From: Dehalococcoidia bacterium
Lineage (GTDB): Bacteria; Chloroflexota; Dehalococcoidia; Plut-88900
Direction of reading: 5' to 3'
NCBI GenBank assembly: GCA_965249275.1
Contig: CBDFLQ010000005.1
Span: 195,030 to 259,029 of the forward strand
Length of the DNA stretch: 64,000 nt
The notes beneath the pieces are model-generated. The model was not told the origin of the DNA. It saw nothing but the letters and a program-made list of their open reading frames with translations, and searched no databases. This document shows positions 6,274 through 56,009 of this stretch, in pieces. The number at the start of each line of letters is the position of its first letter. Positions within the stretch are counted from its first letter, which is position 1. Position numbers and translations under genes: made by a program.

Positions 6274-6274
6274 C

Positions 6275-8084: not shown

Positions 8085-8100
8085 TCCTTTTTCTACGCTC

Positions 8101-9455: not shown

Positions 9456-9492
9456 GTCATCCCGAGGCCCCGCGAGGGATCTAGGACTTGCC
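9456..9492 (+). repeat. 37-bp dispersed REP-like repeat, copy 3
   Basis: Exact GTCATCCCGAGGCCCCGCGAGGGATCTAGGACTTGCC. Confidence 0.9.
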
Positions 9493-9581
9493 CAACCACA
9501 CCCTTCCCCCTTTACGCCTTCCCATTCCTCGTGGTTGCCCTACCCCCTCCCCACTGCCCCCCAATCAAAGGATCACCCTAT

Positions 9582-9622
9582 GTGACACCAACCCCTTGAC
9601 TCCATCAGACCATACGTACTAA
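9582..9622 (+). promoter_or_regulatory. conserved promoter-like module, copy D (degenerate -10)
   Basis: GTGACACCAACCCCTTGACTCCATCAGACCATACGTACTAA aligns with the modules at 36891 (+), 41172 (-) and 56009 (-). TTGACT at 9596-9601. Confidence 0.45.
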
Positions 9623-10043
9623 CCTCCTCTTGGTCCCCGTCTGCACAGCCGACTCACTACCGCCGACATCCTCACCTCTTCTTTCCGAACGGTTTTCCCT
9701 CCGACCCAACAACCCCATACACCTAATCCTGAAGGACCTTGCCCAATTCTTAAACTCCAGCAGCCATTCCAACACCCCTCTCCCCGAGAATTTCTCCTTC
9801 CCTGGCCTATGATTCAAATTCCCTCCGACAAGCAGACAATCAGAATTCGTGCCTGCTGCCCGCAAACAATCAAACACAAAGCTGATTCCTTTGATTGCCC
9901 CCTTCGACTTTGATAGTAGTATGTCAACTTGCCCCCACGCCTTGCCTCCCACCCCCTATCCGCCTAAACTATCCCAGCATCTCTGGTATAACATTGTCTA
10001 ATACACACAATAACCAATTGCATGGATTCACACCCTGGGGAGA

Positions 10044-10277: not shown

Positions 10278-10295
10278 ACCTTGGAAGGAGTCGAC

Positions 10296-10658: not shown

Positions 10659-10679
10659 CCTCCCGCACCCGAGCCTCTC

Positions 10680-12880: not shown

Positions 12881-12890
12881 GGACTAGCAG

Positions 12891-14539: not shown

Positions 14540-14554
14540 TCTCGACCTCCCCGG

Positions 14555-15799: not shown

Positions 15800-15842
15800 C
15801 GGTTTCTCCGTAAGCTATTGGGCTGGCAGCCTCACTCACCCG

Positions 15843-16529: not shown

Positions 16530-16546
16530 TGGGATACCCCCCTCCC

Positions 16547-17797
16547 CTACTTCTCCTGGTTGCACCAGTCCATCGCCGCCAGGGCATACGTCTTCGCCAG
16601 CTGCACCATGCTCGGCACTATGACGTAGGAGTCGGGCTCACCCTTCTGGTCCCGGCCGTTCTCGGCGCCCATCAGGCACACTGGAATACCCGCCTCCCAA
16701 ATGTGGCAGCTGTCGTTGCCCGCATAGGATTGGGTCAGTATCGCCCCTATCTTGTCCGGCGCCCGACCCGAAACCTTACGGTAGGCCTTCTCCAGGTTCT
16801 GCACTATCACGTTGTCTTTGGGCACGTCCATCGGGTTCATGAACACCGTCATCACCTTGTACTCCGGCGGCACCGGCGTCACGATTTCGTACTCGAAGGT
16901 CGGGTCCTCTTCCTTGATCTTGCTCAGTGCCCGGTCAAGGTCTGCCTTGACCGTCACGTGCGACTGCCCAGGCACGATCCTCGCATCGACTATCACCGTG
17001 CAGTAGTCACAGGTGAAGTTCGGCCCTTTCAGGTCGTGGTTCCTCCCCCTCCCCCCGATTATCGTCCCAGCGATAATCCGTGGCAGATCGGGCAGGTCGG
17101 GCCTGTGCTCGTAGGTGAATTCTACGTTCTTGATTGCCGGTATGGCCTTTGTCATCATCTCCAGGGCGTCGACGGCCAGATGAGAGCGGCTCACGTGCTG
17201 CGACTGCCCGACGGTGCTGATAGCCAGCTCCACGACTCCTGCGTGAGTCGTCATTATGTTGTCTCCGTCGCCCGTGGGCTCCGCGACATACGCTCCGTCA
17301 GTTCTCAGTCCTTGGTTCAAGGCGTAGACCGTCCCCACCCCTCCCTGTAGCTCCCCGACAACGCACGCCACGACAAGGTCGCCCTTCATCGGGGCCTTGG
17401 CCTTCCGAATAGCCTCGGCAGCGGTGATGATCGCCGTCACGCCGCCCTTCATGTTGTTGATCCCAGCACCGTACAGCCGGTCCCCTTCCCAACTGGGAGT
17501 GAACGGCTCCCGCACCCAGCCCATCGCCAGCGGGTCGATGTCTATGTGCCCGTTCAGCATCAGGCTCTTGCCCCCACCCGACCCCTTCAGCGTCGCTATC
17601 GTCTGATACCGACCCGGCTCCACTTCCTGCAAATCTACCTCATACCCTCTGCGACGGAAGAACCCGGCCAGGAACCTTGCAACTTTCTGCTCTTCCGTCT
17701 TGAAGCTAGGCATGGAGATCAGGTCGCTGGCCAGCTTGACTGTCTGCTCGGTCTTGATCTGACGAAGGACGCGTTCCTCGACCGCTTGGTCAACCAT
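16547..17797 (-). CDS. M20-family metallopeptidase / deacylase, paralog 3
   Basis: Start moved to the ATG at 17797, preceded by GGGAGGT. Collinear with the other two paralogs (LMLNGHIDIDP, NMKGGVTA, VVGELQGGVGT). Confidence 0.85.
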   Translation of the reverse strand: MVDQAVEERVLRQIKTEQTVKLASDLISMPSFKTEEQKVARFLAGFFRRRGYEVDLQEVEPGRYQTIATLKGSGGGKSLMLNGHIDIDPLAMGWVREPFTPSWEGDRLYGAGINNMKGGVTAIITAAEAIRKAKAPMKGDLVVACVVGELQGGVGTVYALNQGLRTDGAYVAEPTGDGDNIMTTHAGVVELAISTVGQSQHVSRSHLAVDALEMMTKAIPAIKNVEFTYEHRPDLPDLPRIIAGTIIGGRGRNHDLKGPNFTCDYCTVIVDARIVPGQSHVTVKADLDRALSKIKEEDPTFEYEIVTPVPPEYKVMTVFMNPMDVPKDNVIVQNLEKAYRKVSGRAPDKIGAILTQSYAGNDSCHIWEAGIPVCLMGAENGRDQKGEPDSYVIVPSMVQLAKTYALAAMDWCNQEK

Positions 17798-17931
17798 TCT
17801 TACCTCCCGAGACACATGGGTTCTTTAGGAAGAAGGACTGTTTGCCCTTCTCAAGGACGAGGCGAGTATATTATCAGCCCCGACCACAAACAAGCCGAAA
17901 CGCCACTCCACCCCCGTAGGTGCACCCCCTA

Positions 17932-19589
17932 GGAGCCTGTCTCACAAGTGGGGTGGGGTGTGGCAAGAGTGAAGGGCTAGATGGGGTGTCATTTGAGCAA
18001 TGATCGGTCACGACGACTCATGCCGGGTGGCCGATGATTGAGTTGCGCACCAGCGATGGGATGAGATTGCGGCCCCATATGCGGGTTGTCCGGCCGTGCC
18101 ATACCCGCCACAGGGTGCGCAGATTGAAGGCCGAGGCCAACAGGCCCCACTCGGCGGCCACGTTGTTGAGGCCCCGCAGCAGGAACCTACGCGCCGCCTG
18201 TTGCTCTTTGATGATCCCGAACACCGGCTCTACCAGCCCCTTCCTGCGACGGTACAACTCTCTGGCTTCATCGCTGCCCATCCAGGACCGATGACGACGC
18301 AAGGCTGTGTCGTGGGGCCCTATCTCAAGCCCTCGCCCATGTCGGCCGTCCCTCGTACACACCCCGAAGACCGGGCACCCTCGGCAGATGGCCCCCGAGG
18401 CCCGGTAGAGCCTCATCGGCATCCCACGGGTGCGCTTGATTCGGGTGAAGCGTAGTCGTTGTCCTTGCGGACAGATGTAGCTGTCGGTATCCTCATCGTA
18501 GGCGAATCGGTCCTTGTGATAGGGGCGGCCCAGTGCCCGACGCTGTGCCTCAGGCATCACAACTTTCTGCTCTCTGCGCCCACACTGCTGCAGATTGCTC
18601 CCTGAGTGATAGCCCGCATCGGCCAGCGTCGTCTCAGACCTGAGGCCGGTGGTCTCCTCCGCCCTCTGAAGCATTGGAACGAGTTGGGAATGGTCGTCGG
18701 GATCATCGGCTACCTCTACTGCAGTGATCAACATGCCCTTCCCGCCTGTGTCGGTCTTCGTCGGCGATACCATCGCCTGTGCGTTGTAGCAGGGCGCTAT
18801 CCCCCGGCGAGTCCTCATCAGACGTGCGTCTTTATCCGTGAGGTTTATCTGTTTGATCTCACTGCGCTCCGAGAGTTCGTCCATAGCTCGGCGCACCTTC
18901 TCTCTCAGCGCCGTCTTCTCGGTCAACTCATCAGGCAGATGGACGGGTGCGGCATCCTCCCCCGTCTCGTTCTCAGCCTCCAGTTCCTTCAGCGACTGCT
19001 CCACACGCCTCAGCAGACGCTCCAATCCTTCTCCATCCAGGCTCCTGTCTCCCGTCGCATTCGCACCCACCTTCGTGCCGTCCACTGCCTGCAGCGTCAG
19101 GTCGATAAGGTCCATCCCGAGCGCCGTTTGCACTGTGCGCTTCAGCAGTTTACGCATCGACTGGCGATTGCTCTTGTAAAACCTCCACAGCGTGTTGTGA
19201 TCTGGACGCTGCCATCCCGTCAACCATAGATACGGTATCTGGTCACGGCAGGCCCCCTCCAGCTTGCGGCTCGACCTTACCCCCGTCATGAATCCGTACA
19301 GCCACACCCCCAACATTGCCCTGGGATGGTACGCCGGCGCTCCCGTCCAGCTTCCGTCAATGTCTACTCCCATCTCTGCCCAGTCCTCCCGTCCCAGTGC
19401 ATCGACGAACTCCGCCACGAACCGCACAGGATGATCTTCCGGCACCATCTCATCCAGGGTCGGTGGCAGCATCCACACCTGCTCTCGTCCCATCGGTCTC
19501 AGTGGCATCTCCATAACCTCCACTCAGAGCTTCTCCCCTCCTAGTTTACCCTCATGCATAAACCTCCACTCCCTTTTGAGACAGGCTCC
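17932..19589 (-). mobile_element. IS1182-family insertion sequence (~1.66 kb) with imperfect ~25-bp terminal inverted repeats
   Basis: Left end GGAGCCTGTCTCACAAGTGGGGTGG. The right end reverse-complemented reads GGAGCCTGTCTCAAAAGGGAGTGG. CTA sits immediately outside both ends (17929-17931, 19590-19592). Single transposase ORF inside. Confidence 0.85.
18018..19523 (-). CDS. IS1182-family (IS5-like DDE) transposase
   Basis: 501-aa ORF. N-terminus LPPTLDEMVPEDHPVRFVAEFVDAL (transposase DUF772-type) and C-terminal DDE region with ADAGYHS and VEPVFGIIKE. Confidence 0.85.
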   Translation of the reverse strand: MEVMEMPLRPMGREQVWMLPPTLDEMVPEDHPVRFVAEFVDALGREDWAEMGVDIDGSWTGAPAYHPRAMLGVWLYGFMTGVRSSRKLEGACRDQIPYLWLTGWQRPDHNTLWRFYKSNRQSMRKLLKRTVQTALGMDLIDLTLQAVDGTKVGANATGDRSLDGEGLERLLRRVEQSLKELEAENETGEDAAPVHLPDELTEKTALREKVRRAMDELSERSEIKQINLTDKDARLMRTRRGIAPCYNAQAMVSPTKTDTGGKGMLITAVEVADDPDDHSQLVPMLQRAEETTGLRSETTLADAGYHSGSNLQQCGRREQKVVMPEAQRRALGRPYHKDRFAYDEDTDSYICPQGQRLRFTRIKRTRGMPMRLYRASGAICRGCPVFGVCTRDGRHGRGLEIGPHDTALRRHRSWMGSDEARELYRRRKGLVEPVFGIIKEQQAARRFLLRGLNNVAAEWGLLASAFNLRTLWRVWHGRTTRIWGRNLIPSLVRNSIIGHPA

Positions 19590-19961
19590 CTAGCGGTTGC
19601 TCGTCCCTTCAGCTCCATCCAACTCCACGGCCTGCCGGATTATCCCTCCAAGGGCCGGTGCCTCCAGGTCCTCCACACTCCTGAGCTTCACGTGCCTCAT
19701 CCGCTTCCCCGTGCCCTCGATCAAACCGTCGGGGTTCGGGAGCAAGGCTCCTTGCCACAGCCCCAGGGTAACGTATTTGTCCGCCTGTGAAGCTATGTAG
19801 AAGATCCTAACCTTCTTTTCAAAGAACGGGTTGCCCCACTTAATCGACTCCCGTAAGTCGAGCCCAGCCTCCAGGAACATCCGACGTAGCTCTACTGCCA
19901 GAGGCCTCAGCCGCGTATCCACCTCAACCAACCAGTCGTCAAAACTCTTCTTAGACGGCAT
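19590..19961 (-). CDS. DUF1801 (YdhG-like) domain protein
   Basis: 123-aa ORF with ESIKWGNPFFEKK...YIASQADKYVTLGLWQG. The stop codon TAG (19590-19592) coincides with the IS flanking repeat. Confidence 0.6.
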   Translation of the reverse strand: MPSKKSFDDWLVEVDTRLRPLAVELRRMFLEAGLDLRESIKWGNPFFEKKVRIFYIASQADKYVTLGLWQGALLPNPDGLIEGTGKRMRHVKLRSVEDLEAPALGGIIRQAVELDGAEGTSNR

Positions 19962-19978
19962 AGTCGTATCCCTGTGCC

Positions 19979-20938
19979 CTATTTCGTGCCGGGAACCAGC
20001 GTGAGCAGGAACTGCAGCACCAGGTTGGCAGCGAGAAGCGAGGTTATTTCAGAAATATCGTAGGCGGGAGCCACCTCCACGATATCAAACCCAACCGCCC
20101 CGATACCCCTCAGGCTCTTGACCAGGGCCATCGCTTCCCGGCTGGTGAGCCCCGCCACCTCCGGGGTCCCGGTTCCCGGGGCGAAACCAGGGTCCACGCT
20201 GTCGATGTCGTAGGAGATGTGCACCGGACGACCCTTTGTGGCCGACCTTATCTTCTCGATAGTGGCATCGACACCCGTGTGCCAGAACTCCTCGCCCGTG
20301 ATCACGGTAATGCCCGCGGCCTTTACCTCCTCGACTATCCCCATTGAGGGCCGTCCCCGTATCCCCACCTGCACTGACGTCGCCGGGTCCATGATCCCCT
20401 CATCCGAGGCGATGCGGAACATGGAGCCGTGGTGTATAGGCATATCCTTGGGCGGCTCCCAGAAGTCGGGGTGTGCATCGAAATGGACGAGGGATATCTT
20501 CCCGTGCTTCTTGTACAGCGCCCTCAGAATAGGAAGAGAAACCGTGTGGTCTCCCCCGAGGCACACCGGGAAGACGTCCTGGGAGATGATATCCGTGACG
20601 ACAACCTCTATGCGCCTGACCGCCTCTTCAATGTACCCATAGGTGAGTTCGATATCTCCATAATCTACGATGCGGAGGCTCTTGAAGGGCTCGGTCAGCT
20701 CCGCCGCCTCCAGCCCGTGCTGCCCGACGTGCATGGACGCAGTACGTATACCCCTAGGCCCGAACCTCGCCCCCGAGCGAATGATGGTCCCCAAATCCAG
20801 CGGAAGCCCGACTATCGCCACGTCGGCTTTGGACAGGTCCCGGCTCCCGGGAATCTGCATAAAGGTGCTTGGGCTCCCGTATCGGGGCCCGTTTTGCCAC
20901 GCTTCAGGCATCAATCGATTTTCTTCAGTGTTACCCAT
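19979..20938 (-). CDS. agmatinase / guanidino-acid ureohydrolase (arginase family)
   Basis: 319-aa ORF with arginase-family Mn motifs LGGDHTVS, HFDAHPD and SYDIDSVDP. Confidence 0.85.
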   Translation of the reverse strand: MGNTEENRLMPEAWQNGPRYGSPSTFMQIPGSRDLSKADVAIVGLPLDLGTIIRSGARFGPRGIRTASMHVGQHGLEAAELTEPFKSLRIVDYGDIELTYGYIEEAVRRIEVVVTDIISQDVFPVCLGGDHTVSLPILRALYKKHGKISLVHFDAHPDFWEPPKDMPIHHGSMFRIASDEGIMDPATSVQVGIRGRPSMGIVEEVKAAGITVITGEEFWHTGVDATIEKIRSATKGRPVHISYDIDSVDPGFAPGTGTPEVAGLTSREAMALVKSLRGIGAVGFDIVEVAPAYDISEITSLLAANLVLQFLLTLVPGTK

Positions 20939-31536: not shown

Positions 31537-31691
31537 TGTCGTCTCCTTATTAACTCACTTTGATGGCACTGGGTTATTCGAAGAATTCAAGAGAGTCTTC
31601 GAGGCTAACCAGGGTTAGGCCTCAGGCGAAAGAGAGCAAGGAATCATGGAACTTACAATACCGTCAGCCGACCGCGCGGGGCAAGGGGGAG

Positions 31692-34283
31692 ATGGCGCAG
31701 TGGCAGTGTTATCATTGTGCAGATGCTAAGGGATTCGCGAAAATGAACGAAGCTACAGCACGGATAAAGATCAACGGACTGCTTGAGAAGGCAGCTTGGC
31801 GTTTCTTCCCTGAAGGGGATAACCCTGCCAACATTCAGCTTGAGCCGGGAGTCGCGCTCAAGCCATCCGACCTGGACCAAATTGGGAATGATTTTGAGAA
31901 AACAGAGAAGGGATTCATAGATTACCTTCTTCTGGATGAGCGTGGATTCCCCCTCGTTGTGCTCGAAGCCAAGTCAGAAAAGTTGCAGCCGCTGGCCGGA
32001 AAGGAGCAGGCCCGGAGATATGCCCGCTCCAAGAACTGCCGCTTCGTCATCCTATCCAATGGCATCCTGCACTATTTCTGGGACTTGGAGCGGGGCAATC
32101 CCTACATAATCACCAAGTTCCCAAAGCCGGAGTCGGTTGCTGGGTACAGTAAGGTTAATCCCGACCCAAAGCGATTGATTGCCGAAAAGGTAGATGCCGA
32201 CTACATCGTTCTCAGCCAGCGGCCCAACTACCTTTCCGAGGCAGCGTGGAAGAACGAGGCCGAGCGACAAAACTTCATTAGCTCCAACAAGCTTCGCTTT
32301 CTCCGAGACTATCAGTCGAGGGCCGTCCATGCCCTTCAACGGGCCGTTAAGGACGGTAATGACCGCTTTCTGTTCGAAATGGCAACTGGCACCGGGAAGA
32401 CGCTTACCGCCGCGGCCGTCATAAAGCTGTTCCTCCGCTCGGGCAATGCATACCGGGTCCTGTTCTTGGTGGACCGCCTTGAACTCGAGGTGCAGGCCCA
32501 TAAGGTCTTCACTGACCTCCTATCGGCCGATTTCCAAACCGCCATATACAAGGAGAGGCGCGACGACTGGCGTTCGGCTGAGATCGTGGTCACCACCGTC
32601 CAATCCCTGCAATTCAACAACAAGTACCAGGCCCTCTTCTCTCCCACCGACTTCGACCTCGTGATTTCCGACGAAGCCCACCGCTCCATCAGCGGCAACG
32701 CGCGAGGGGTGTTTGACTACTTCGTCGGCTATAAGCTTGGCCTCACTGCGACGCCCAAAGACTACTTGCGAGGATCCGACAAGACCGGTCCCAACGTCCG
32801 TGACCCGCGCGAGGTGGAGCGGAGGCTGCTGCTGGACACCTACCGCACATTCGGATGCGAAAGCGGTCAGCCAACCTTCAGGTACTCACTTCTTGATGGA
32901 GTCAAGGACGGATACCTCATCAACCCCACCGTAATAGACGCTCGGACCGAGGTGACTACACAACTCTTGGCAGAAGACGGCTTTGTAGTTTCTTCCACCG
33001 ATGATACCGGCGAAGAGCATGAAGAGACTTTCAAGCAGCGGGAGTTCGAGAAGCGGTTCTTCTCCGATGCGACTAACCAACTATTCTGCAAGACGTTCTT
33101 GGAGAACGCACTAAAAGACCCGGTAAGCGGAGAGATCGGCAAGTCCATCATCTTCGCTGTGAGCCAGAACCACGCCGCCCGACTCACTCAGACCCTGAAT
33201 GAGATCGCCGACGCCATGTTTCCGGGCAAATATCAGTCCGACTTCGCCGTTCAAGTCACCTCCCGAGTTCAGGACGCTCAGCAGTTCACAATCAATTTTG
33301 CCAACAACAATCTGATGGGCTCGGGCAACTTGCTGTCCTCATACCGCACCAGCAAGGCTCGGGTCTGCGTAACCGTCGGCATGATGACCACGGGCTACGA
33401 CTGCACGGATATCCTGAACCTTGGCATGTTCCGTCCCATCTTCTCCCCCACCGACTTCGTACAGATCAAGGGGCGGGGAACACGTAAGCATAACTTTCTT
33501 GAGCATCTGCATGATCCCGACGCCGCAGATGCCGTCGCCGACCCCGAAAAGACCACTTTCAAGCTCTTTGACTTCTTTGCCAACTGCGAATACTTCGAGA
33601 CCGAGTTTAACTACGACCAGGTAATCCAGTTGCCGCGGCCTCAACCTCGCAGTGACGGGGGTGGAAACGGAGGGGACGACCCGCCCCCGACGATCTTCAG
33701 TGGCTACGAGCATATGGGCGAGGACATCCTAAAGGAAATCAAGGAAGTGCAAATCGGGTCTGAGGGCATGAAAATCGACCGCATGTTTTTTGACCGGTTC
33801 GCGGACGCCGTCAAATCGGACGACGCTGTCAAAGAAGCAATCGAGGCCGGCCAGTGGGACCGGGTCATCGACTACGTGAACCGGGAGGTCTTTGACAAGC
33901 CCGAGGAATACTACTCCCTGGAAAAGCTCCGTAGAGCCGCTTCCGTCGACCGCCGCCTCAGCCTGCGGGAAATTCTTGAAAAGGTCTTCGACCTCATTCC
34001 CGCCTTCAAGTCCAAAGACGAACTGTTGGAAGAGGAGTTCAACAAGTTCGTTGCCGACCACAAGCCTGACCGCTCCGCTTCCATTCTCGCCATCAAGACC
34101 TTCTTCAAGGCGTATATCACCAACGGGATCACCCGAGAGGCTGTTGACAATAAGGAGTTCAACTGCCTGGCTACCAACGCCGCGTTTACTATGAAAGACT
34201 ATAGGGCGGTCCCCGAAAAATACCAGGAGCTCGTTCCAGAATACATCAAGGACTACGTCCCACTGAACCAGTTCGCAGCGTAA
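31692..34283 (+). CDS. hsdR: Type I restriction enzyme R subunit
   Basis: N-terminal nuclease domain (IDYLLLDERGFPLVVLEAKSE), SF2 helicase motifs (FEMATGTGKT, VISDEAHRS, QIKGRGTR) and a long C-terminal helical domain. The start is uncertain: ATG at 31692, 31743 or the track start 31560. Confidence 0.85.
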   Translation: MAQWQCYHCADAKGFAKMNEATARIKINGLLEKAAWRFFPEGDNPANIQLEPGVALKPSDLDQIGNDFEKTEKGFIDYLLLDERGFPLVVLEAKSEKLQPLAGKEQARRYARSKNCRFVILSNGILHYFWDLERGNPYIITKFPKPESVAGYSKVNPDPKRLIAEKVDADYIVLSQRPNYLSEAAWKNEAERQNFISSNKLRFLRDYQSRAVHALQRAVKDGNDRFLFEMATGTGKTLTAAAVIKLFLRSGNAYRVLFLVDRLELEVQAHKVFTDLLSADFQTAIYKERRDDWRSAEIVVTTVQSLQFNNKYQALFSPTDFDLVISDEAHRSISGNARGVFDYFVGYKLGLTATPKDYLRGSDKTGPNVRDPREVERRLLLDTYRTFGCESGQPTFRYSLLDGVKDGYLINPTVIDARTEVTTQLLAEDGFVVSSTDDTGEEHEETFKQREFEKRFFSDATNQLFCKTFLENALKDPVSGEIGKSIIFAVSQNHAARLTQTLNEIADAMFPGKYQSDFAVQVTSRVQDAQQFTINFANNNLMGSGNLLSSYRTSKARVCVTVGMMTTGYDCTDILNLGMFRPIFSPTDFVQIKGRGTRKHNFLEHLHDPDAADAVADPEKTTFKLFDFFANCEYFETEFNYDQVIQLPRPQPRSDGGGNGGDDPPPTIFSGYEHMGEDILKEIKEVQIGSEGMKIDRMFFDRFADAVKSDDAVKEAIEAGQWDRVIDYVNREVFDKPEEYYSLEKLRRAASVDRRLSLREILEKVFDLIPAFKSKDELLEEEFNKFVADHKPDRSASILAIKTFFKAYITNGITREAVDNKEFNCLATNAAFTMKDYRAVPEKYQELVPEYIKDYVPLNQFAA

Positions 34284-34291
34284 ACCAGGTC

Positions 34292-36094
34292 ATGCTGGAC
34301 TCAGACACCAAACGCCGCATAGATACGGCCCGGGACATCCTGGTGGGCAAGGTGCCCGACCCCAAGAGCCAGGTCGAGCAGATCACCATTGCCCTCATCT
34401 ATAAGTTCATGGACGACATGGACGCCGAAAGCGAAGAGCTGGGCGGCAAGCGGACATTCTTCGCCGACGGGTTCGCAAGGTACGGCTGGGCCAAGCTCAT
34501 GAGCCCCGGCATCGGAGGGCACGAGACGCTGAACCTCTACGCCGAGGCCATAACCAAGATGCCGGAGAACCCCGGCATTCCCCAACTCTTCCGGGAGATC
34601 TTCAACAACGCTTATCTTCCCTACCGGGACCCCGAGACCCTACGCTCCTTCCTGAAAGTTATTGACGGGTTCAGCTATGACCACTCGGAGCGGTTGGGCG
34701 ACGCATTCGAGTATCTCCTCTCCGTCCTGGGCGCCCAGGGCGATGCCGGGCAGTTCCGCACCCCGCGCCACATCATAGACTTCATGGTCTCCGTCATAGA
34801 CCCGAAGAAGGATGAAGTGGTGCTGGACCCCGCCTGCGGCACCGCCGGCTTCCTCATCTCATCATACAAGCACATCCTGGTCTCCAACACCGGCGAAGAC
34901 GGCAGCAGCACGCTAACTCCCGACGACAGGGGCCGGATGGCCTCCAACTTCAAGGGCTACGACATCTCTCCCGACATGGTGAGGCTATCCCTGGTAAACC
35001 TCTACCTCCACGGATTCGCCGCTCCCCAGATATACGAGTACGACACCCTGACCAGTGATGAGCGGTGGAACAAGTACGCCGACGTAATCCTTGCCAACCC
35101 GCCCTTCATGTCTCCGAAGGGCGGCATCAGGCCGCACAACCGCTTCTCCATCCAGTCAAAGCGCAGCGAAGTCCTGTTCGTGGACTACATGGCGGAGCAC
35201 CTAACCGCAAAGGGCAGGGCAGGCATCATAGTCCCCGAGGGGATAATATTCCAGAGTCAGAACGCCCACAAACGGCTGCGCAAGATGCTGTTGGAGACAT
35301 GCCTGGTGGCCGTAGTCTCCCTGCCGGCGGGCGTGTTCAAGCCTTACTCCGGGGTCAAGACCTCCATCCTGATACTCGATAAATCACTGGCGCGAAGGAC
35401 GGACAGCGTAGCCTTTTTCAAGGTGGAAAACGACGGCTTCGACCTCGGCGACCAGCGGCGTCCTATAGACGCGAACGACCTGCCACAGACGGCCCGTGCG
35501 GTCCGGGAATGGCTGGATGGCCTCCGGTCAGCGCAAGGGGCTATGGTGCGGGAAGAAAGCGCCGTCTACACAGCCGGGCCCGGCGAGCATGGCATGACCG
35601 ACCTGCAGGTCCTTATGGAGAGGGGGGCCGCTCTCTCGGCGAGCAAGGCGGAGATTGCCGCCGACGGGGAGTGCAATCTGAGCGGGCAGCGGTATCGAGA
35701 AAAGACTCTTCAGCATTTGTCAAAGTGGCCTATGGTGAAGGTCAGGAGCATCTGTAAAGAGATTCTCAGCGGAGGCACTCCGTCAACAAAAAACGAGGAT
35801 TTCTGGTCAGGTTCTATCCCTTGGATTACAAGCGCCGATATTGTGGATATCAAGACTGCCATTCCACGCAGGCATATAACCAAGGACGCTATTGCAACTA
35901 CGGCAACAAACCTGATTCCGAAGGGTAATGTGATAGTCGTTACGAGAGTCGGACTTGGGAAACTGTTCCGGAACAACTTTGACGTCTGCATAAGCCAGGA
36001 TTCTCAGGGGCTGATACTTAAGGACTTGGCTGATGCTGACTACCTCGTACATGTACTGCAAAGAGCTGTCGTGGCATTTAAAGAGCTAGGCTAA
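34292..36094 (+). CDS. hsdM: Type I N6-adenine DNA methyltransferase (HsdM) running without a stop into an HsdS target-recognition domain
   Basis: HsdM N-domain, AdoMet motif VLDPACGTAGF and catalytic NPPF (ILANPPFMSP). From ~35732 (MVKVRSICKEILSGGTPSTKNEDFWSGSIPWITSADI) the sequence is a typical HsdS TRD. Terminated by TAA 36092-36094. Confidence 0.85.
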   Translation: MLDSDTKRRIDTARDILVGKVPDPKSQVEQITIALIYKFMDDMDAESEELGGKRTFFADGFARYGWAKLMSPGIGGHETLNLYAEAITKMPENPGIPQLFREIFNNAYLPYRDPETLRSFLKVIDGFSYDHSERLGDAFEYLLSVLGAQGDAGQFRTPRHIIDFMVSVIDPKKDEVVLDPACGTAGFLISSYKHILVSNTGEDGSSTLTPDDRGRMASNFKGYDISPDMVRLSLVNLYLHGFAAPQIYEYDTLTSDERWNKYADVILANPPFMSPKGGIRPHNRFSIQSKRSEVLFVDYMAEHLTAKGRAGIIVPEGIIFQSQNAHKRLRKMLLETCLVAVVSLPAGVFKPYSGVKTSILILDKSLARRTDSVAFFKVENDGFDLGDQRRPIDANDLPQTARAVREWLDGLRSAQGAMVREESAVYTAGPGEHGMTDLQVLMERGAALSASKAEIAADGECNLSGQRYREKTLQHLSKWPMVKVRSICKEILSGGTPSTKNEDFWSGSIPWITSADIVDIKTAIPRRHITKDAIATTATNLIPKGNVIVVTRVGLGKLFRNNFDVCISQDSQGLILKDLADADYLVHVLQRAVVAFKELG

Positions 36095-36127
36095 GGCTCA
36101 ACCATAAGGGGTGTAACCAAGAAGCAA

Positions 36128-36865
36128 TTGGCGGACCTAAGCATTCCGCTCCCCCCGCTTCCCGTGCAACGGGAGATAGTGGAGGAGATAGAGGGGTATC
36201 AGAAGGTGATAGACGGGGCGAGGGGGGTGGTGGACAACTACCGGCCCCACATCTCGGTTGACCCGGACTGGCCACTGGTGCCAATCAAGTCAGTTGCGGA
36301 TGTCGAAAGTGGATTTGGCTTCCCTATCGCTTTCCAAGGCAACCTCAATGAGGCTATTCCATTCCTTAAAGTCAGCGACATGAACTTACCAGGCAACGAG
36401 ACGGTGATTACCTCTTGGAACAACTCAATCTCCAACGACGTTTTGAGGGAACTTAGGGCCAAGTCATTCCCCAGCGGGACTGTAATTTTCCCGAAGATCG
36501 GTGCCGCTATTGCTACTAACAAGAAACGTATCCTCAGTCTTGAGTCCACTTACGATAACAATGTAATGGGCATAGTTCCCAATACGCAAAAGCTGTTATC
36601 GCGCTTCTTGTACAATTGGTTGATTGGATTTGACCTGTCCCATTGGGCTAGTGACAGTCAACCGCCATCAATGAGAAAGACGATGGTTGAGCGGCACAAC
36701 ATTCCCTTCCCACCCCTCCCCACCCAACAAGCCATCGTCGCCGAGATCGAAGCTGAGCAAGAGCTTGTCAACGCCAACCGGGAACTGATAGCCCGCTTTG
36801 AAAAGAAGATTCTGGGCGTGATTGACCGGGTGTGGGGAGCGTCCTCCCCCGGCATTCCCGAGTAA
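36128..36865 (+). CDS. hsdS: Type I specificity subunit remainder (central conserved region + TRD2 + C-terminal conserved region)
   Basis: In the same frame as the upstream ORF. Across the TAA the sequence reads ...FKELG*GSTIRGVTKKQLADLSIPLPPLPVQREIV... The only nearby start is a weak TTG at 36128. The second conserved helix is IPFPPLPTQQAIVAEIEAEQELV. Confidence 0.7.
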   Translation: MADLSIPLPPLPVQREIVEEIEGYQKVIDGARGVVDNYRPHISVDPDWPLVPIKSVADVESGFGFPIAFQGNLNEAIPFLKVSDMNLPGNETVITSWNNSISNDVLRELRAKSFPSGTVIFPKIGAAIATNKKRILSLESTYDNNVMGIVPNTQKLLSRFLYNWLIGFDLSHWASDSQPPSMRKTMVERHNIPFPPLPTQQAIVAEIEAEQELVNANRELIARFEKKILGVIDRVWGASSPGIPE

Positions 36866-36890
36866 TCGGGCCGTAGGCTCGCCTCGGCGA

Positions 36891-36933
36891 GTGACATCTC
36901 CCCTTGACCCGATAAGAACATATGTTGTATATT
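36891..36933 (+). promoter_or_regulatory. conserved promoter module, copy C (TTGACC-18-TATATT)
   Basis: GTGACATCTCCCCTTGACCCGATAAGAACATATGTTGTATATT aligns, spacer included, with the modules upstream of the two large ncRNA candidates. Confidence 0.6.
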
Positions 36934-37021
36934 CCCACCCATGACCACCTCTCTCCAACTCACCTTTCGTCCTGCCCCTTCGGCCCCGCGAAAAACTTTC
37001 GCGAACCTTCTAGGCGTCATT

Positions 37022-37112
37022 CAATCAAAACAGCTACGAATTCAATCAACCTTCAATCAAGTTCAATCGACTTTCAATCAAGACCAATCATCCTCCAATC
37101 AATCGTCAATCA
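37022..37112 (+). repeat. array of eight direct (T)TCAATCA repeats at 10-11-bp spacing
   Basis: CAATCA (one CAATCG) starts at 37022, 37043, 37054, 37064, 37075, 37085, 37096 and 37107. The array sits between two convergent genes. Confidence 0.9.
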
Positions 37113-37126
37113 AAGGGACGGCTCGC

Positions 37127-38425
37127 CTAAAGAGTCTTCCGCCAGTCCGCCGAGTCCCCCTCCTGGAAGCGGGTGAAACGGAAGGGGTGAAGATCGACGC
37201 TTGGTGTCTCTCCCATGACAAGCTGAGACATAACCAGCCCAGCCCCGGGGCCCATGGCGATCCCGTGGCCGCTCATCCCCGTGGCGAAGTAGAACCCCTT
37301 CACGCCGGGGACCTCCCCCAGAACAGGCGTAGCATCAGGGCTGGCGTCTATCCTGCCCGCCCACGTCCGCTGTATGCCCAGATCTCCAACCGAGGGCAGC
37401 AGCTTTCTCAAATGGCTAATCGACTGCTCGACAAACCGGCCATTGGGCTCAGGCTCAACCCCGACAGTGTGTGCGAAGGGGTGGGCTTTGGCCGGGGAGC
37501 CGGGCAGTGCCCTCAGCACATCATCGAACAGTTCCTTGCCGACGTGAACATTCATCGTCTTCTTCACCCGCAGAAAGTTGCGTATGAAAAGCCCGAAATT
37601 TTGCAAGGATTGAAGATCGACGTAGTAGTCTGACCTCGTGCCGTTCGATATGTAGAAGGTCCCGTCCCGCTTCTGCCGAAAAGTCACGTCCGGGGTCATC
37701 ACCGTGCAGTGGGAGATAATGTCGGTGGGCTCGGTGCAGACGACGGTGCCTTTCACCACCCGCTGGGGCAGGTGAACTCCCACCATCCGCCCAACCTTCG
37801 ATGCCCAGGCCCCCGCCGCGCAAACAACCTTATCCGTTTCAATTCGACCCTTGTCGGTGACGACGGCTTTAACGGCGCCACCCTCCACTTCTAACCCTTC
37901 CACAGCGCGCCCGGTGTGTAGAGCGACCCCACTTTCTCTAGCGGCCCAGGCTATCGCCTCGGTTGCGCGGCGGGGCTCGGTCTGGCCGTCGGAGGGAGTG
38001 TGGATTCCACCAACGAACGGTCCCTCGAGCGCGGGTATCTCGCGCTTAACTTCGTCCCTGGTTAGGACCCTGGTGTCGAGACCCAAGACTCGGGCCTCCC
38101 GGGCCCAGTCCTCGAAGTGAGAGAGGTCCTCTTCCGTGTAGGCCAGCTTGAGGGACCCTTCCTCAATCCATTCAACGTCCGCGCCTATTTCGTCGGTGAG
38201 CCCCGACCAAAGGCCCTTGGAGAACGTGACAAGGGGAAGCTCTCTCGGGTTCCGACCCTGCTGCCTGACCCAGCCCCAGGCTCGGCTGGACTGCTCGCCT
38301 GCTACCTCACCCTTCTCCACGATTGCAACTTTCACGCCTCTCTTGGCGAGGTAATACGCCGTGCAGCACCCGACAATCCCCGCCCCGATGATGACCACGT
38401 CGGCTTTGGAATCGTTAGTTGTCAT
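37127..38425 (-). CDS. FAD-dependent oxidoreductase (DAO family; sarcosine/D-amino-acid oxidase-like)
   Basis: Dinucleotide fold DVVIIGAGIVGCCTAYYLAKRGVKVAIVEKG and C-terminal GFYFATGMSGHGIAMGP. Start is at 38425 (GAGGAGG upstream) or 38455. Confidence 0.8.
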   Translation of the reverse strand: MTTNDSKADVVIIGAGIVGCCTAYYLAKRGVKVAIVEKGEVAGEQSSRAWGWVRQQGRNPRELPLVTFSKGLWSGLTDEIGADVEWIEEGSLKLAYTEEDLSHFEDWAREARVLGLDTRVLTRDEVKREIPALEGPFVGGIHTPSDGQTEPRRATEAIAWAARESGVALHTGRAVEGLEVEGGAVKAVVTDKGRIETDKVVCAAGAWASKVGRMVGVHLPQRVVKGTVVCTEPTDIISHCTVMTPDVTFRQKRDGTFYISNGTRSDYYVDLQSLQNFGLFIRNFLRVKKTMNVHVGKELFDDVLRALPGSPAKAHPFAHTVGVEPEPNGRFVEQSISHLRKLLPSVGDLGIQRTWAGRIDASPDATPVLGEVPGVKGFYFATGMSGHGIAMGPGAGLVMSQLVMGETPSVDLHPFRFTRFQEGDSADWRKTL

Positions 38426-38484
38426 AGCCTCCTCGGGCCCGGGCTGGTTGTCCATACATCAGCCGCAACGATTTGGAGAGCAAT

Positions 38485-40382: not shown

Positions 40383-40491
40383 CTCAGCATCTCCCTAGGC
40401 TAAGGAAAGAGGCTACAGTCTGACAATATCCGGTGGGGAAATCAAGGCAGTGTACTCGTTCGGTAGATTAGTGACACACTGGCCTTTTCTT

Positions 40492-41123
40492 CAGTTGTGG
40501 GGGTTCGGTTTCAGTTCTGTCTGTTAGGTTTTGGGTTGGCGATGAAAGACGCTTGCTGGATTCGGCTCCCTATCTTTAGATAATGCGGGCTAGGAGGCGT
40601 CCCGGGAACGTGGGGACGGGGCTCCGCCGCCGCCTAGACCTGGAAGTATGGTCGGACATACGGGTCCGTCATCCGTCATAGGCTCCAATGAAGGTTGGCT
40701 GCGCTGTCCGCCGTAGGCGGATGCAGGAAGGGGAAAGTCCAGGGTCAGTTCCCCTCGCAGGAGTACGGGGTATCCAGTTCGCCGCCTGTATCCAGGAGCC
40801 GGGAGTGGCGGACAGTCCAGTTTTATTTGAGGAAGCGGACGGAGAGCCGAGCGGGCCTCGGCTACGGGCCGCCCCGTTCCGCTCCATGGGACGAGAGCTC
40901 CGAAAGGAGCCATAGGGACAATTACGGTCCAGGGCGTCTTCCATCGCCTGGGGTCAGGGAAGGGGGCGCGGGGCCCGGTAAGAGGAGATGGCGGCGTTTG
41001 CTTGAGCCGCGGGCCCCGTGTATGGGCCGTTGGGATGGGCTTGGACGTTGAGTCCTCGTTGTGGGCCGGGTGGGCTTCCCTGGGTGTTGGTTTCCTCCTT
41101 AAGGTGGGTGTCGGGTCTAGACT
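40492..41123 (-). ncRNA. candidate large structured ncRNA (unclassified), copy A
   Basis: ~630 nt with no credible ORF. Homologous in blocks to 55306-55959. Consensus promoter at 41130-41172. Long-range helix 40538-40552 with 40934-40948, plus several conserved hairpins. Ends are approximate. Confidence 0.6.
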
Positions 41124-41129
41124 GGTCCA

Positions 41130-41172
41130 ATAATAGAACATGTGTCTTATGAAGTCAAGGGGGTGATGTCAC
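41130..41172 (-). promoter_or_regulatory. conserved promoter module, copy A (TTGACT-17-TATTAT)
   Basis: The minus strand reads GTGACATCACCCCCTTGACTTCATAAGACACATGTTCTATTAT. Confidence 0.7.
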
Positions 41173-41309
41173 CCCTCTATGTGAACGGGATCAGCTACTA
41201 TCCTCACCATGACACCATCTTATGTGTCACCAATCTTTGTGAATGCCTTGACAGATATGGACTAGTGTTTTATTCTGCGCCGCAGGATTTTTTCTAACAA
41301 GGTTAGCAC

Positions 41310-43619
41310 ATGCCTCACGTCCTGCGAGCGTCCTACACGTTTGGAATCTTCGCCATCATCGGGATTGCCCTGTTCTTTGCAGTCGGAGTCTTTGCCGACG
41401 ACCATAATCCCGTGGACCTCTACCCTTCCGTTTCATGGGAGGGGGAGGAGATCACCCAGCCGGTTGTCGGGGAGTTCCTAACGGCAGCCCTGGTTGCCAA
41501 AGACCCGACCGGCATGTCCTGGCAGTGGGCCCGCTCCCAAGATGGAGAGGGCGGATGGGAGGACATTGAGGCTGCAACCTCTACGAAGTACATCCCCACC
41601 AATGATGACGTAGGGCGCTACCTCCGGGCAACAGTCTCCTATACCGATGGAGACGGCAACACCCAGAGTGCAGAGGCAAGCACCACCGATCAGGTGGTGC
41701 TAGAGAGGAGTGGTGTCCGCTGCCCATGGTGCGAACCTGAGCCGATATGGACGGCGACCTCCGTGCCCACTAATACACCCGTGCCCACTAATACACCCGT
41801 GCCCACCAGTACACCCGTGCCCACCAATACACCTTTACCCACCTCGAACCCTGACCCGTGTGACAGCACCAGGCACGCTCACGATTGCCACCCAGGGTAC
41901 GAGACGCCAACACCGCAGCCGACATCCACGGCCGACCCATGTGACAGTACCAGGCACGCTCACGATTGCCATCCAGGGTACGAGACGCCAACACCGCAGC
42001 CGACATCCACGGCCGACCCATGTGACAGCACCAGGCACGCCCACGATTGTCACCCGGACTATGAGACACCCACTCCCACACCGACTCCCACACCCACTCC
42101 CACACCGACTCCCACACCGACTCCCACGCCTACTCCCACGATCATGCCTTGTGCAAATTGCCCCACCCCGACCCCTATTCCGACCGCCACGCCAACGACA
42201 ACCCCATCTCCAACGCCTGACCCGGACGAGGAGGAAGAGACCGACGACAGCGAGCCGACGGGCGATTGCGCCGTGGCGATAGCCGCAAGTAGGTGGAGTG
42301 ACTATAACACCGCGGCCCTTGAGGATGAGTGTGGCGTCCTGCTTGCCATCAGTGATGCCTCCCGGGGGTCCTCCAGCCTCAACTGGACGGGCGACTCGTC
42401 CTTTGACAGGTGGACTGGGGTGTCGGTCAGTTTCGTGAGCGATGTGCCCCGGATAATTGGCATCTACCTGAGCAACCGGGGGCTGGAGGGACAACTGCCC
42501 TTCCAGTATGGCCAACTCCGTCAACTCACGACTCTGTATCTGGATGGCAACAACTACTCGGGGGCTGTCCCGTACGAGATCAGTTCCCTGCCCAATCTTC
42601 TCTTCCTTAACCTGGCGGGGAACGCCCTCACCGGTAACATACCGGTCCCAAGTTCACGGACCATCCAGCTCCTCATGCTTTCCAACAACCAGTTCAGCGG
42701 GTCGATCCCGGGATCCCTGGGTACGAAAGTGTCCCTGCGACTCCTCGACCTCTCGAACAACAACCTGACGGGGTCAATCCCCTCGGAGCTGACACAGTTG
42801 GCAGACACGTTGATGAGCCTGCGGATCGCCGGCAACAACTTCAGCGGGTGCGTGCCACATGCCATAGCTCTGGCCTTGGGACAGATTCGCAACCATGACC
42901 TTGGACATCTCAACATACAGGTCTGCTACGCAGACATCATCGAGTCCCCGGGGCACGCAGCAAACTGCTTTAGTCTCGTGTCTTGGTCGAGCGGCCAGGG
43001 GGTCAGTGAAACCGTAAGGCTGACCTCCCCCAGCGGGTACGACCACGAGTTCCACGTCGAATCGTATGGATCCAACGGCGTCCTCCTAAGCCGTCAATGC
43101 CTGCAAGCCCGATTCGTGGGGGTTTCGACACCCGGGGCCCAAAGGCTTGAGTGGGGCGGGACCGTACACTACGTCCCGCCGAGGTTCTTCACGCTGTCCC
43201 TTAGTGAAATAACGAACCTTAATGCGAGTAGTTTCCGTGCTTCTCTCAACAATGACCTGCCCGCAGGCGCTGACTCGCAGGTCCTGTCCGTCGATACCTC
43301 CTGTACCCAATGTAGAGGAGGCAATGCCCAGCCTACACTTGGTCACTGGGTTGACTTGAAGCACAATAGTTACATGATGGCAGTGTATGGGTACTATACG
43401 TTTACAGTAGGCAACGTTAGCCAGACATTGAGGGCGTCTCACGAGTGGTCGCTGGAACCGCCCCACACCATCCCGACCCACTGGGGCAACCCCCTGCTCA
43501 CTGCCGCAGAGCAAGCTATTGCGAACCAAGCGTGGGAGCTGGCTACCTACGCAATTCATCTGGGGTTTGATGCATTGGTCGCCGAATTGCAAGAGCAGTA
43601 TGAGGACTGGATTAATTAG
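41310..43619 (+). CDS. membrane-anchored/secreted protein with Cys/His-rich tandem repeats, PT linker and plant-type leucine-rich repeats
   Basis: 769-aa ORF. N-terminal TM segment, 3 x DPCDSTRHAHDCHPGYETPTPQPTSTA, (TP)n, then LRRs (LDLSNNNLTGSIPSELTQL etc.) and an unassigned C-terminal domain. Confidence 0.7.
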   Translation: MPHVLRASYTFGIFAIIGIALFFAVGVFADDHNPVDLYPSVSWEGEEITQPVVGEFLTAALVAKDPTGMSWQWARSQDGEGGWEDIEAATSTKYIPTNDDVGRYLRATVSYTDGDGNTQSAEASTTDQVVLERSGVRCPWCEPEPIWTATSVPTNTPVPTNTPVPTSTPVPTNTPLPTSNPDPCDSTRHAHDCHPGYETPTPQPTSTADPCDSTRHAHDCHPGYETPTPQPTSTADPCDSTRHAHDCHPDYETPTPTPTPTPTPTPTPTPTPTPTPTIMPCANCPTPTPIPTATPTTTPSPTPDPDEEEETDDSEPTGDCAVAIAASRWSDYNTAALEDECGVLLAISDASRGSSSLNWTGDSSFDRWTGVSVSFVSDVPRIIGIYLSNRGLEGQLPFQYGQLRQLTTLYLDGNNYSGAVPYEISSLPNLLFLNLAGNALTGNIPVPSSRTIQLLMLSNNQFSGSIPGSLGTKVSLRLLDLSNNNLTGSIPSELTQLADTLMSLRIAGNNFSGCVPHAIALALGQIRNHDLGHLNIQVCYADIIESPGHAANCFSLVSWSSGQGVSETVRLTSPSGYDHEFHVESYGSNGVLLSRQCLQARFVGVSTPGAQRLEWGGTVHYVPPRFFTLSLSEITNLNASSFRASLNNDLPAGADSQVLSVDTSCTQCRGGNAQPTLGHWVDLKHNSYMMAVYGYYTFTVGNVSQTLRASHEWSLEPPHTIPTHWGNPLLTAAEQAIANQAWELATYAIHLGFDALVAELQEQYEDWIN
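41853..42080 (+). repeat. three tandem 81-bp coding repeats
   Basis: Units start at 41853, 41934 and 42015, nearly identical at the DNA level. Followed by an ACNCCN (Thr-Pro) microrepeat to ~42140. Confidence 0.9.
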
Positions 43620-55086: not shown

Positions 55087-55245
55087 GTACTCCCCTAAGT
55101 GGGCCGAGAATCTTATACACTCAAGGCCGCCGGCGCGTCCCTCCGTTGCTTAGAATCCTCCAACGGTACATTGTAGGGCGCAAACCGGCGCGAAGTGTAC
55201 ATTACCGGTATTTTAGTGTCAAGATTTGGGGTAGTGGGCGGGTGG

Positions 55246-55284
55246 GGACACCGCCCCAGATTCCTCGCAGGGCATCGGAATGAC
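55246..55284 (-). repeat. divergent relative of the REP-like repeat
   Basis: The minus strand reads GTCATTCCGATGCCCTGCGAGGAATCTGGGGCGGTGTCC, with the same GTCAT..CCGA...CGAGGRATCT.GG frame as the 37-bp repeat. Confidence 0.5.
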
Positions 55285-55305
55285 AGGGGGAGGGGGTGGG
55301 TTATT

Positions 55306-55959
55306 CAGTTGTGTGGTTTCGGGTTCCGTTCTATTTGTTGGGGTGGTTGGCGATGGAAGACGCTGGCTGGACGCTGCCCCCGTTCCTGTGCTTCGGGTGC
55401 TCCGACGCCCTGGAGCAAGGCCGCCGGCCCGCTTTTGCCGCTGCTGCGGCCTGTGGCCCTGTATACGCTGGACGTGGGCAGGGACCATCAGGGCCACCAA
55501 GTCCGAGCCCGACTCCGGGGGGTTGGCTGCACCGCTATAGGGCGGCAAGGAGGCCCGTCCAGCGTCCGATGCCGGGCCTCTTGCAGGCGTAATGTGTCCA
55601 AGTTTGCCGGTGCGACCCGGAGCGCGTAGACCACCGGCTCCCGGCTTGATTAAGCGGACGGTGTACCGAGAGGGCCTCGGCGCCGGGCCTATCCGACCGC
55701 TATTCCGCTTGAAGGAGCGGCATCTCCGTTAGGAGCCTCACATGGAACGATAGCGAACCAGGGCGTCTTTCCATCGCCTGGGGGGTAGGGAAGGGTGCAC
55801 GGGACCCGTGGGGATGAGGAGATGGCGGCGTTTGCTTGAGCCGAGGCCGGGCAATGCCGACCTACGGGATGGGCTTGGACGTTGAGTCCTCGGGTGGGTC
55901 GGGTGGGCTTCCCTGGGTTTTTGGTTCCTCCTTGAGATAGTTAGGTTGGTGTTCGAACG
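55306..55959 (-). ncRNA. candidate large structured ncRNA (unclassified), copy B
   Basis: ~650 nt with no credible ORF. Shares end blocks and internal islands with copy A. Promoter at 55966-56009. Long-range helix 55349-55363 with 55763-55778. Ends are approximate. Confidence 0.6.
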
Positions 55960-55965
55960 GTGGGG

Positions 55966-56009
55966 ATAATAGCACGGATGTTCATAACGGGTCAAGGGGT
56001 TGATGTCAC
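55966..56009 (-). promoter_or_regulatory. conserved promoter module, copy B (TTGACC-18-TATTAT)
   Basis: The minus strand reads GTGACATCAACCCCTTGACCCGTTATGAACATCCGTGCTATTAT. Confidence 0.7.

Follow-up and report, generated by a model that had tools for sequence, protein, structure and literature searches.

What does one promoter-like sequence of ~43 bp do at four sites of a single 64-kb stretch of Dehalococcoidia DNA (the whole stretch analysed here, called the window), each time ahead of DNA that seems to encode nothing? The first-pass annotation, made from the letters of the window, offered two answers. The sequence might be a dedicated promoter or regulator-binding cassette for a set of non-coding transcripts, or it might be a small mobile element that carries a promoter.

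The module in the window

A search of the 64-kb window with the pattern GTGACAN{3,8}CCCTTGAC returned exactly four matches (9582+, 36891+, 41172- and 56009-, here sites D, C, A and B), which confirms the positions and sequences first proposed for them; the same pattern had no match among 100 dinucleotide-preserving shuffles of the window, the chance expectation being 0. The further claim, that the four align over the whole ~43 bp and not only at the hexamers, is borne out by spacer positions that lay outside the search pattern. Among 64 related sites of the clade, the spacer consensus is R-A-A-C-A-Y-N-Y-G-T-N-C, directly followed by TAWWWT, and the similarity over the whole 43 bp is real because the unsearched spacer positions are almost invariant (A 61/64, C 63/64, G 64/64, T 64/64 and C 63/64). 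The 100% conservation of GTGACAYC among the same 64 sites is uninformative, as this motif was itself part of the search pattern. A 19-nt weight matrix covering the spacer and the -10, trained on 59 sites from other genomes with the window excluded, placed B, A, C and D in that order as the top four sites of the window (scores in Table 1); the fifth-ranked site, at 11.5 bits, was at shuffle level.

Scored as sigma-70-type promoters, sites A, B and C have near-consensus -35 and -10 hexamers with a spacer of 17-18 nt, inside the 16-18 nt expected of this type, agree with the consensus at 10/12 positions and are the best matches of their regions. Site D, which has a weak -10, falls below the threshold of the sigma-70 scan and received no promoter call. 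At least 130 nt without a plausible ORF had been reported after each site, and this holds: the ORF-free distances range from 193 to 879 nt, with 747 nt to argC (A), 879 nt to a dehydratase gene (B), 193 nt to the stop of a convergent oxidoreductase gene (C) and 418 nt to a TusA-like gene (D).

Table 1. Positions of the promoter modules and associated features in the window.
Feature	Positions	Strand	Details
Promoter module, site A	41130..41172	-	-35 TTGACT 41158-41153, 17-nt spacer, -10 TATTAT 41135-41130; 25.0 bits
Promoter module, site B	55966..56009	-	-35 TTGACC 55995-55990, 18-nt spacer, -10 TATTAT 55971-55966; 26.6 bits
Promoter module, site C	36891..36933	+	-35 TTGACC 36904-36909, 18-nt spacer, -10 TATATT 36928-36933; 23.4 bits
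Promoter module, site D (weakest of the four)	9582..9625	+	-35 TTGACT, -10 TAACCT; 16.3 bits
Complete 743-bp non-autonomous element A, TG...CA termini	40451..41193	-	No target duplication
Left terminal inverted repeat of element A, TGATCCCGTTCACATAGAGGGGTGACATCACC	41162..41193	-	Includes the GTGACA of the module; from alignment of the ends
Right terminal inverted repeat of element A, CCAGTGTGTCACTAATCTACCGAACGAGTACA	40451..40482	-	21/32 bases identical to the left end of the insertion sequence in L069
Conserved non-coding cargo of element A	40483..41129	-	5' block from AAGGAGG; inverted-repeat arms 40948-40934 and 40552-40538
Palindrome at the predicted start, A type, (G)GTCTAGAC(C)	41110-41120	-	
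Palindrome at the predicted start, B type, GTTCGAAC	55955-55962	-	
Second element copy (site B)	55196..56009	-	Outer left repeat missing; orthologue L069
Hairpin repeat module GCCGTAGGCTCGCCTCGGCGA abutting the GTGACA of site C	36870..36890	+	Same or near-identical at ~14 loci of related genomes
Untranslated unit behind site C	36934..37126	+	Bounded by a convergent FAD oxidoreductase gene (37127-38455, -) at its stop codon
11-nt periodic TTCAATCAA array in the site C unit	37041-37113	+	6.8 copies of TTCAATCAACC
Untranslated leader, site D	9626..10043	+	~418 nt, ahead of TusA-like (10044-10277), DsrE-like (10281-10658) and MetE-like (10680-12200) genes

Distribution and promoter class

One genome per GTDB species was scanned with the pattern GTGACAYC-N1-2-CCCCTTGAC-N17-20-TANNNT. 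This gave 69 module matches in total, ~59 of them from five MAG assemblies of Dehalococcoidia, each 3.0-3.4 Mb in size (18, 14, 14, 10 and 3 per genome), and three of the 69 are chance matches outside Chloroflexota. The genome of the window itself is absent from this collection; its closest relatives are OZ240215.1, OZ244800.1 and CBDCTF01, with 90-94% DNA identity. Neither the module nor the cargo motif described below was found in a viral contig collection, which speaks against a phage origin.

The module is not the way in which this clade ordinarily builds a strong promoter. The 16S rRNA promoter region (L066) and the promoter of a four-tRNA operon (L013) have TTGAC(T/A) and a -10, and are without the C-tract, RAACA, GTNC and GTGACA; the module therefore represents a special promoter class and not the local housekeeping consensus. 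The matrix scan found no further site above background in the window, whose other genes are without the module. A genome-wide motif search was the check that the first-pass annotation had itself proposed, and a motif common in front of ordinary protein genes would have pointed to a generic housekeeping promoter. The search speaks for the opposite, as only 1-2 of ~64 sites stand directly ahead of a protein gene (L021, L039) and most lead into one superfamily of non-coding repeats.

Anatomy of the element

The repeated unit has two ends. In six copies (window A, L011, L036, L042, L056 and L065) it is complete, measures 717-845 bp between TG...CA termini, starts with TGATCCCGTTCACATAGAGGGGTGACA... 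and terminates with ...GTGTCACTAATCTACCGAACGAGTACA. Its repeats read TGATCCCGTTCAC... on the left and ...GAACGAGTACA on the right, and the boundaries of conservation are sharp, with an onset at or just before GTGACA and an end at ...GAACGAGTACA. The termini of window A form imperfect inverted repeats of ~30 bp (TG..C.CGTTC..TAGA...GTGACA.CAC) that can be aligned up to GTGACAYCAC, and the same terminal inverted repeats are present in L011, L036, L042, L056, L065, L076 and L072. Perfect 5-bp target-site duplications flank four of the six complete copies (CTCCC, CAGGG, CACCG and GAGGC), compared with a mean of 1.8/5 identities in mismatched pairings of flanks; the apparent significance of these duplications is somewhat inflated, because the element boundaries were set after the sequences had been viewed. 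The other two have no clean duplication: at L065 there is a 4-nt match in a shifted position, and at window A a rearrangement of the left flank, seen against orthologous loci, accounts for the absence of any. Both ends are recognisable in these six copies only. In most copies, and at sites B, C and D, other repeats abut GTGACA in place of the outer left repeat, and for copies of that kind, B, C and D included, mobility as a complete unit is only putative.

The module of site A occupies positions 22-64 of its 743-bp element. GTGACAYC forms the inner edge of the left terminal repeat, and the right end mirrors it with GTGTCAC. The 'GTGA-CA-TCAC half-palindrome' of the first-pass annotation is thus more plausibly a piece of this repeat than a regulator site. 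Only the left end has the C-tract, -35, spacer and -10, the right end being without CCCCTTGAC...TAWWWT; they are therefore not required for end recognition, which favours a role in transcription. When copies are sampled via the cargo rather than via the promoter, the GTGACA region is the least conserved. Taken together, these features make it probable that the 43-bp module serves as internal promoter to non-autonomous DNA transposons, which form a family in a single Dehalococcoidia lineage. The family has inverted repeats, a duplication of fixed length, no encoded protein and copies at many loci with presence/absence differences. Miniature elements are usually smaller than ~0.3-0.5 kb, a size that no complete copy has (717-845 bp), so that 'MITE-like' or cassette is a better fit than classical MITE.

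Comparison of loci points in the same direction. When the flanks of window A are set against the orthologous L064/L046 and against L076, the left flank differs and the sequence is common from GTGACA inward. A contig with a 97% identical ArgC has the same right junction of the element, with another left flank and another 5' subtype, and a genome with a 75% identical ArgC (L077) has no element upstream of argC, only a 189-nt gap. Synteny breaks exactly at the element edges. Judged from these alignments, the element is not ancestral to its neighbour argC. The first proposal of a mobile promoter-bearing element was thus right as to mobility, and what needs correction is the unit, which is the 0.72-0.85-kb element and not the 43-bp module. 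Head-to-head with element A, a solo right-repeat-like remnant (TGTGTCACCAATCT...) lies at 41223-41250 (+), directly upstream of the promoter of a leucine-rich-repeat protein gene (41310-43619, +). A second gene of this kind is found at 58639-60510 (-); its DNA is internally repetitive, with cross-matching repeats in L012, L061 and L067.

Sites B, C and D

Site B belongs to another 5' subtype than A, has a hairpin repeat inserted at 55259-55284 and finishes in a degenerate right-repeat-like end, TGACACTAAAATACCGGTAATGTACA, at ~55221-55196. Mosaics such as site B would arise from recombination among copies and from the insertion of small repeats at the GTGACA junction. The intergenic DNA of the clade, including the upstream regions of most loci, is dense in families of short hairpin repeats that form a mosaic next to the module (GCCGTAGGCTCGCCTCGGCGA, GTCATTCC..GGAATC, GGGGCGGTTCGCGAACCGCCCC and TCCCCCTCTCCCTT..AAGGGAGAGGGGGA; in the window for example at 36870-36890 (+) and 55259-55284 (-)).

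No element ends were recognised in the window at sites C and D. Recombination, plainly a frequent event at the GTGACA junction, may have brought the promoter to both. The 11-nt array behind site C is also found, in differing numbers of copies, in L033, L045 and L067, where the related units stand in other contexts; it might bind proteins as DNA or act as a sponge in RNA form. CAATCA motifs are also seen in the leader of site D (~9850-9905) and after the element of L026. Immediately upstream of C lies a type I restriction-modification operon (31560-36865, +) that codes for an HsdR-like protein (907 aa), an HsdM/HsdS fusion (600 aa) and an HsdS (245 aa). Site D itself is conserved in position in two other genomes (orthologues L005 and L063). 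Positions 1-20000 of the window have far more C than G on the plus strand (GC skew -0.14 to -0.38), most strongly at 8001-10000, around the C-rich leader of D.

A candidate transposase acting in trans

The element encodes no protein, and therefore its transposase must act in trans. A candidate is found in L069, the orthologue of site B, where an insertion sequence (positions 14-1069) of 1,056 bp runs from TGT to ACA between inverted repeats of ~28 bp, is flanked by the 5-bp duplication ATTCC and codes for a single rve-type transposase of 320 aa. We take these features to match the IS481 pattern, the family being assigned by general features and not by an IS database. The sequence interrupts a hairpin repeat (GTCATTCC|GATGCCCTGCGAGGAATC) whose unbroken counterpart in the window, at 55259-55284 (-), represents the empty site, and another end of the same insertion sequence is present in L040.

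Its left end and the right end of the element are identical at 21 of 32 positions, a level reached by only 8 of 300,000 random 32-mers of the window (p ~3e-5). Internal similarity between the element and the L069 insertion sequence was searched for and none was found; the element is therefore not a simple deletion derivative of that sequence, and we reject such an origin. No autonomous element with identical ends was found either, the ends of the L069 insertion sequence being only related. An IS481-like insertion sequence with an rve-type DDE transposase would be the likely source of the activity in trans, and the non-coding element probably owes its movement to such an enzyme. The link of the family to IS481 is drawn from the end similarity and the duplication length only and should be read as a putative one.

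Cargo and predicted transcription

Sites A and B share ~290 nt of highly conserved sequence from AAGGAGG and a second common block ~550 nt further on. The loci analysed contain 36 copies of this 'core' cargo and ~17 'class 4' units that have the same central and 3' parts with another 5' part. Cargo and module go together, as the module is present in 36/36 core copies with at least 150 nt of upstream sequence (34 by the strict pattern), including the two that were located via the cargo alone. Six metagenome contigs found via the cargo motif keep the spacer element and the -10 in 6/6 cases and the C-tract and -35 in 5/5 with enough upstream sequence; in these contigs GTGACA is replaced by GTGCCA or another sequence.

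The cargo is not a disguised coding region. Substitutions are even across the three codon positions (5663, 5561 and 5626, in class 4 ORFs read from ATG), indels between the A and B cargo copies break every reading frame, and a Pfam search with the mechanical ORFs 36941-37633 and 40590-41141 returned nothing, so that hidden protein genes can be ruled out. Known RNA families (riboswitch, HEARO, group II intron and others) are likewise ruled out by covariance-model scans: Rfam gave no match at the four sites of the window, at the gathering threshold or with E up to 5, and none in 18 related loci at the gathering threshold, HEARO included, apart from tRNA and 16S elsewhere. A small ORF with the motif GAPKGNYNAFKHGRNSRR follows class-4 units and is conserved between L007 and L032; it may code for a genuine small protein that goes with some of these units.

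The genes downstream are ordinary and unrelated, and they have no function in common: argC, proA, ribF, gyrB, a succinate dehydrogenase-type flavoprotein, amidohydrolases, thiolase-like and MaoC-like enzymes, and others. In 26 of 35 cases the first ORF further downstream runs in the same direction as the promoter (p = 0.006, from crude ORF calls), and each downstream gene has its own -35/-10 just past the conserved unit. No intrinsic terminator was found on the transcribed strand of window copies A and B.

The following course of transcription would agree with these features. In a complete element of 0.72-0.85 kb, starting with TG and ending with CA between imperfect inverted repeats of ~30 bp and a 5-bp target duplication, the promoter would lie directly inside GTGACAYC, as a C-tract, a TTGAC -35, a 17-18-nt spacer with the conserved RAACAYNYGTNC and a TAWWWT -10. 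Transcription would start a few bases past the -10, cross ~650 nt of untranslated cargo and leave through the right end towards a neighbour gene that is usually on the same strand and would retain its own promoter just beyond the element. Both the promoter activity and the read-through into the neighbour are predictions from sequence. The first-pass idea of a dedicated promoter for non-coding transcripts survives in that these transcripts would be untranslated, the rRNA and tRNA genes and other genes of the window being without the module; it does not extend to free-standing small RNAs. From their position, the predicted downstream transcripts are long leaders or cargo running towards ordinary genes, to which site C may be an exception.

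Whether the cargo acts as RNA is less certain. It contains an invariant 10-bp long-range inverted repeat (GGCGATGGAA / TTCCATCGCC) whose extensions are specific to the subfamily and yet matched (-17.7 kcal/mol with their own partner vs -13.8 kcal/mol when swapped; none of 10,000 shuffles as good), and a single hairpin position carries at least eight different stems. RNAalifold on the cargo returned mostly invariant pairs, with double changes in only 3 of 32. No strand-specific G-U excess was detected in the cargo, where 19 transitions are sense-compatible vs 37 antisense-compatible; the G-U pairs of the variable-stem hairpin (9 vs 20) have no transcribed-strand signature, and the folding z-scores are weak (-1.2 sense, -0.5 antisense). 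With no G-U signature, weak z-scores and few double changes, palindromes or nested repeats at the DNA level therefore fit equally well.

A conserved interior of ~650 nt and a near-invariant spacer are unnecessary for a passive transposon, and they point to an extra function beyond what transposition explains. Class-specific perfect palindromes (GTTCGAAC, GGTCTAGACC) stand at the predicted start sites, and in a third subtype, seen in related loci, the predicted start has a GACTGGCCAGTC-like palindrome. These subtype palindromes may be operators or recombination sites; in combination with the near-invariant spacer, they suggest that an additional regulator could act here. It is possible, though doubtful, that the interior works as a large non-coding RNA, or as several interchangeable RNA modules, which the transposon carries around the genome, with the spacer element as the operator of a regulator. 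Such a cargo might be a cis-acting leader that alters the stability, termination or translation of the downstream gene, or an RNA that serves the control or mobility of the element itself, and the family would then be a transposon with a regulatory-RNA cargo under its own regulated promoter.

Alternative explanations

The same conservation could be expected of a host regulon. The module would then be a promoter with an operator for a dedicated factor, be it a repressor, an activator or a specialised sigma factor, that co-regulates non-coding leaders; the factor would bind the RAACAYNYGTNC spacer element and/or GTGACA, the inverted ends would be two sites for one protein, and the repeats would have spread through ordinary duplication and recombination. 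The spacer and -10 are indeed near-invariant across subfamilies, including the diverged LXNJ01 lineage, the features of the module are missing from rRNA and tRNA promoters, one promoter precedes no fewer than three kinds of downstream sequence without relation to each other (A/B, C and D), and the start-site palindromes GTTCGAAC and GGTCTAGACC would suit an operator. The LexA box of Gram-positive bacteria and Dehalococcoides is GAAC-N4-GTTC, which, in our estimation, the spacer of the module resembles: GAAC-like and GTNC halves stand 4 nt apart in it, and the box is matched at 7/8 positions at C and B and at 6/8 at A and D. However, the canonical GTTC right half occurs in only 17 of 64 sites, and the downstream genes lack a common function. 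The 5-bp duplications at the TG...CA ends of four copies and the similarity of the ends to an insertion sequence are signatures of transposition that a regulon leaves unexplained. The two ideas can coexist, as a regulator might act on a promoter that a transposon carries, and this would not replace the transposon reading; we consider a host regulon as the whole explanation unlikely.

Even the designation as a promoter may be questioned, since the 43 bp could be subterminal repeats for transposase binding and end recognition, with GTGACA, TTGAC and GAACA spaced about one helical turn and the resemblance to hexamers incidental. Mu- and Tn7-type ends have several internal transposase sites, and the first 60 bp of the element do contain three TGAC/GAAC-like motifs 11-14 bp apart. 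A transposase should bind both ends, whereas here the similarity of the right end to the left stops at GTGACAYCAC. Hexamers and spacing come close to the consensus (10/12), elements are preferentially co-oriented with the downstream gene, and the LXNJ01 lineage keeps the -35, spacer and -10 and loses GTGACA; all of this makes an incidental resemblance quite improbable. As for a generic strong housekeeping promoter, alike everywhere through closeness to the local consensus, the -35 and -10 are near the universal sigma-70 consensus as it would require, but the L066 and L013 promoters and the matrix scan of the window rule it out, and the 1-2 of ~64 sites before protein genes contradict it as well; we leave it next to no probability. 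The internal promoter of a non-autonomous transposon thus remains the preferred reading of the module.

Implications

The family is probably a promoter-bearing non-autonomous transposon, a known type, here in uncultured soil Dehalococcoidia. Its conserved promoter-driven cargo, together with a possibly regulated promoter, could be the part that is new in kind. Dozens of copies of one predicted strong promoter stand before unrelated metabolic and housekeeping genes (argC, proA, ribF and gyrB), and the family offers a concrete, datable example of how promoters spread via transposition. Recombination also takes place at the copies, and synteny between close relatives is lost there. In annotation, the family explains why these genomes have long gaps free of ORFs and why spurious ORFs are called in them, and TG...CA ends, a 5-bp duplication and the 43-bp module provide a signature for finding further elements. 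If the cargo does act as RNA, it would represent a new class of large non-coding RNA spread by a transposon.

Comparison with known systems

Promoter-bearing mobile DNA is a known route by which promoters spread in bacteria, among others in the form of 'putative mobile promoters' (Nijveen, Matus-Garcia & van Passel 2012, PMC3575422), and mobile promoters were also described by Siddique et al. (2011, PMC3024310, as cited in PMC3575422). Like the Correia elements of Neisseria, ERIC and REPIN, the present family is non-coding and multi-copy, has inverted repeats and target duplications, lies in intergenic DNA beside unrelated genes and has a predicted promoter able to feed a neighbour. It differs from Correia and ERIC in length (0.72-0.85 kb vs ~0.1-0.15 kb, three to seven times longer) and in a complete consensus promoter, placed at one terminus and directed inward across the full element. 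Unlike in Correia, ERIC and REPIN, the interior is conserved cargo with invariant blocks and not filler, and the duplication is of 5 bp where theirs is TA.

Large multi-copy non-coding RNAs tied to mobile elements include HEARO / IscB omega RNA and the IS110 bridge RNA. The family resembles these in its hundreds of nt of conserved untranslated sequence, its many copies per genome, its own predicted promoter and its mobile carrier. In contrast to them, the element has no Rfam match (HEARO included) and no associated nuclease or recombinase gene, and its cargo is without strand-specific evidence of RNA structure.

IS481 elements affect the transcription of neighbouring genes in Bordetella pertussis (Amman et al. 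2018, PMC6161684). The element resembles this family in its TG(T)...CA ends, a short target duplication (5 bp here) and the potential to reshape the transcription of adjacent genes, and its ends are related to those of the 1,056-bp insertion sequence of the clade. Unlike IS481 elements, it has no transposase gene, and it has a full -35/-10 inside the element where theirs is a partial outward promoter in the repeat. In the mobile insertion cassettes (MICs) of the Bacillus cereus group, IS-type ends surround a passenger sequence. The element is comparable in its IS-like inverted repeats around a transposase-free passenger and, as we infer for it, in mobilisation in trans; the passenger of a MIC is a protein gene, whereas that of the present element is untranslated and promoter-driven.
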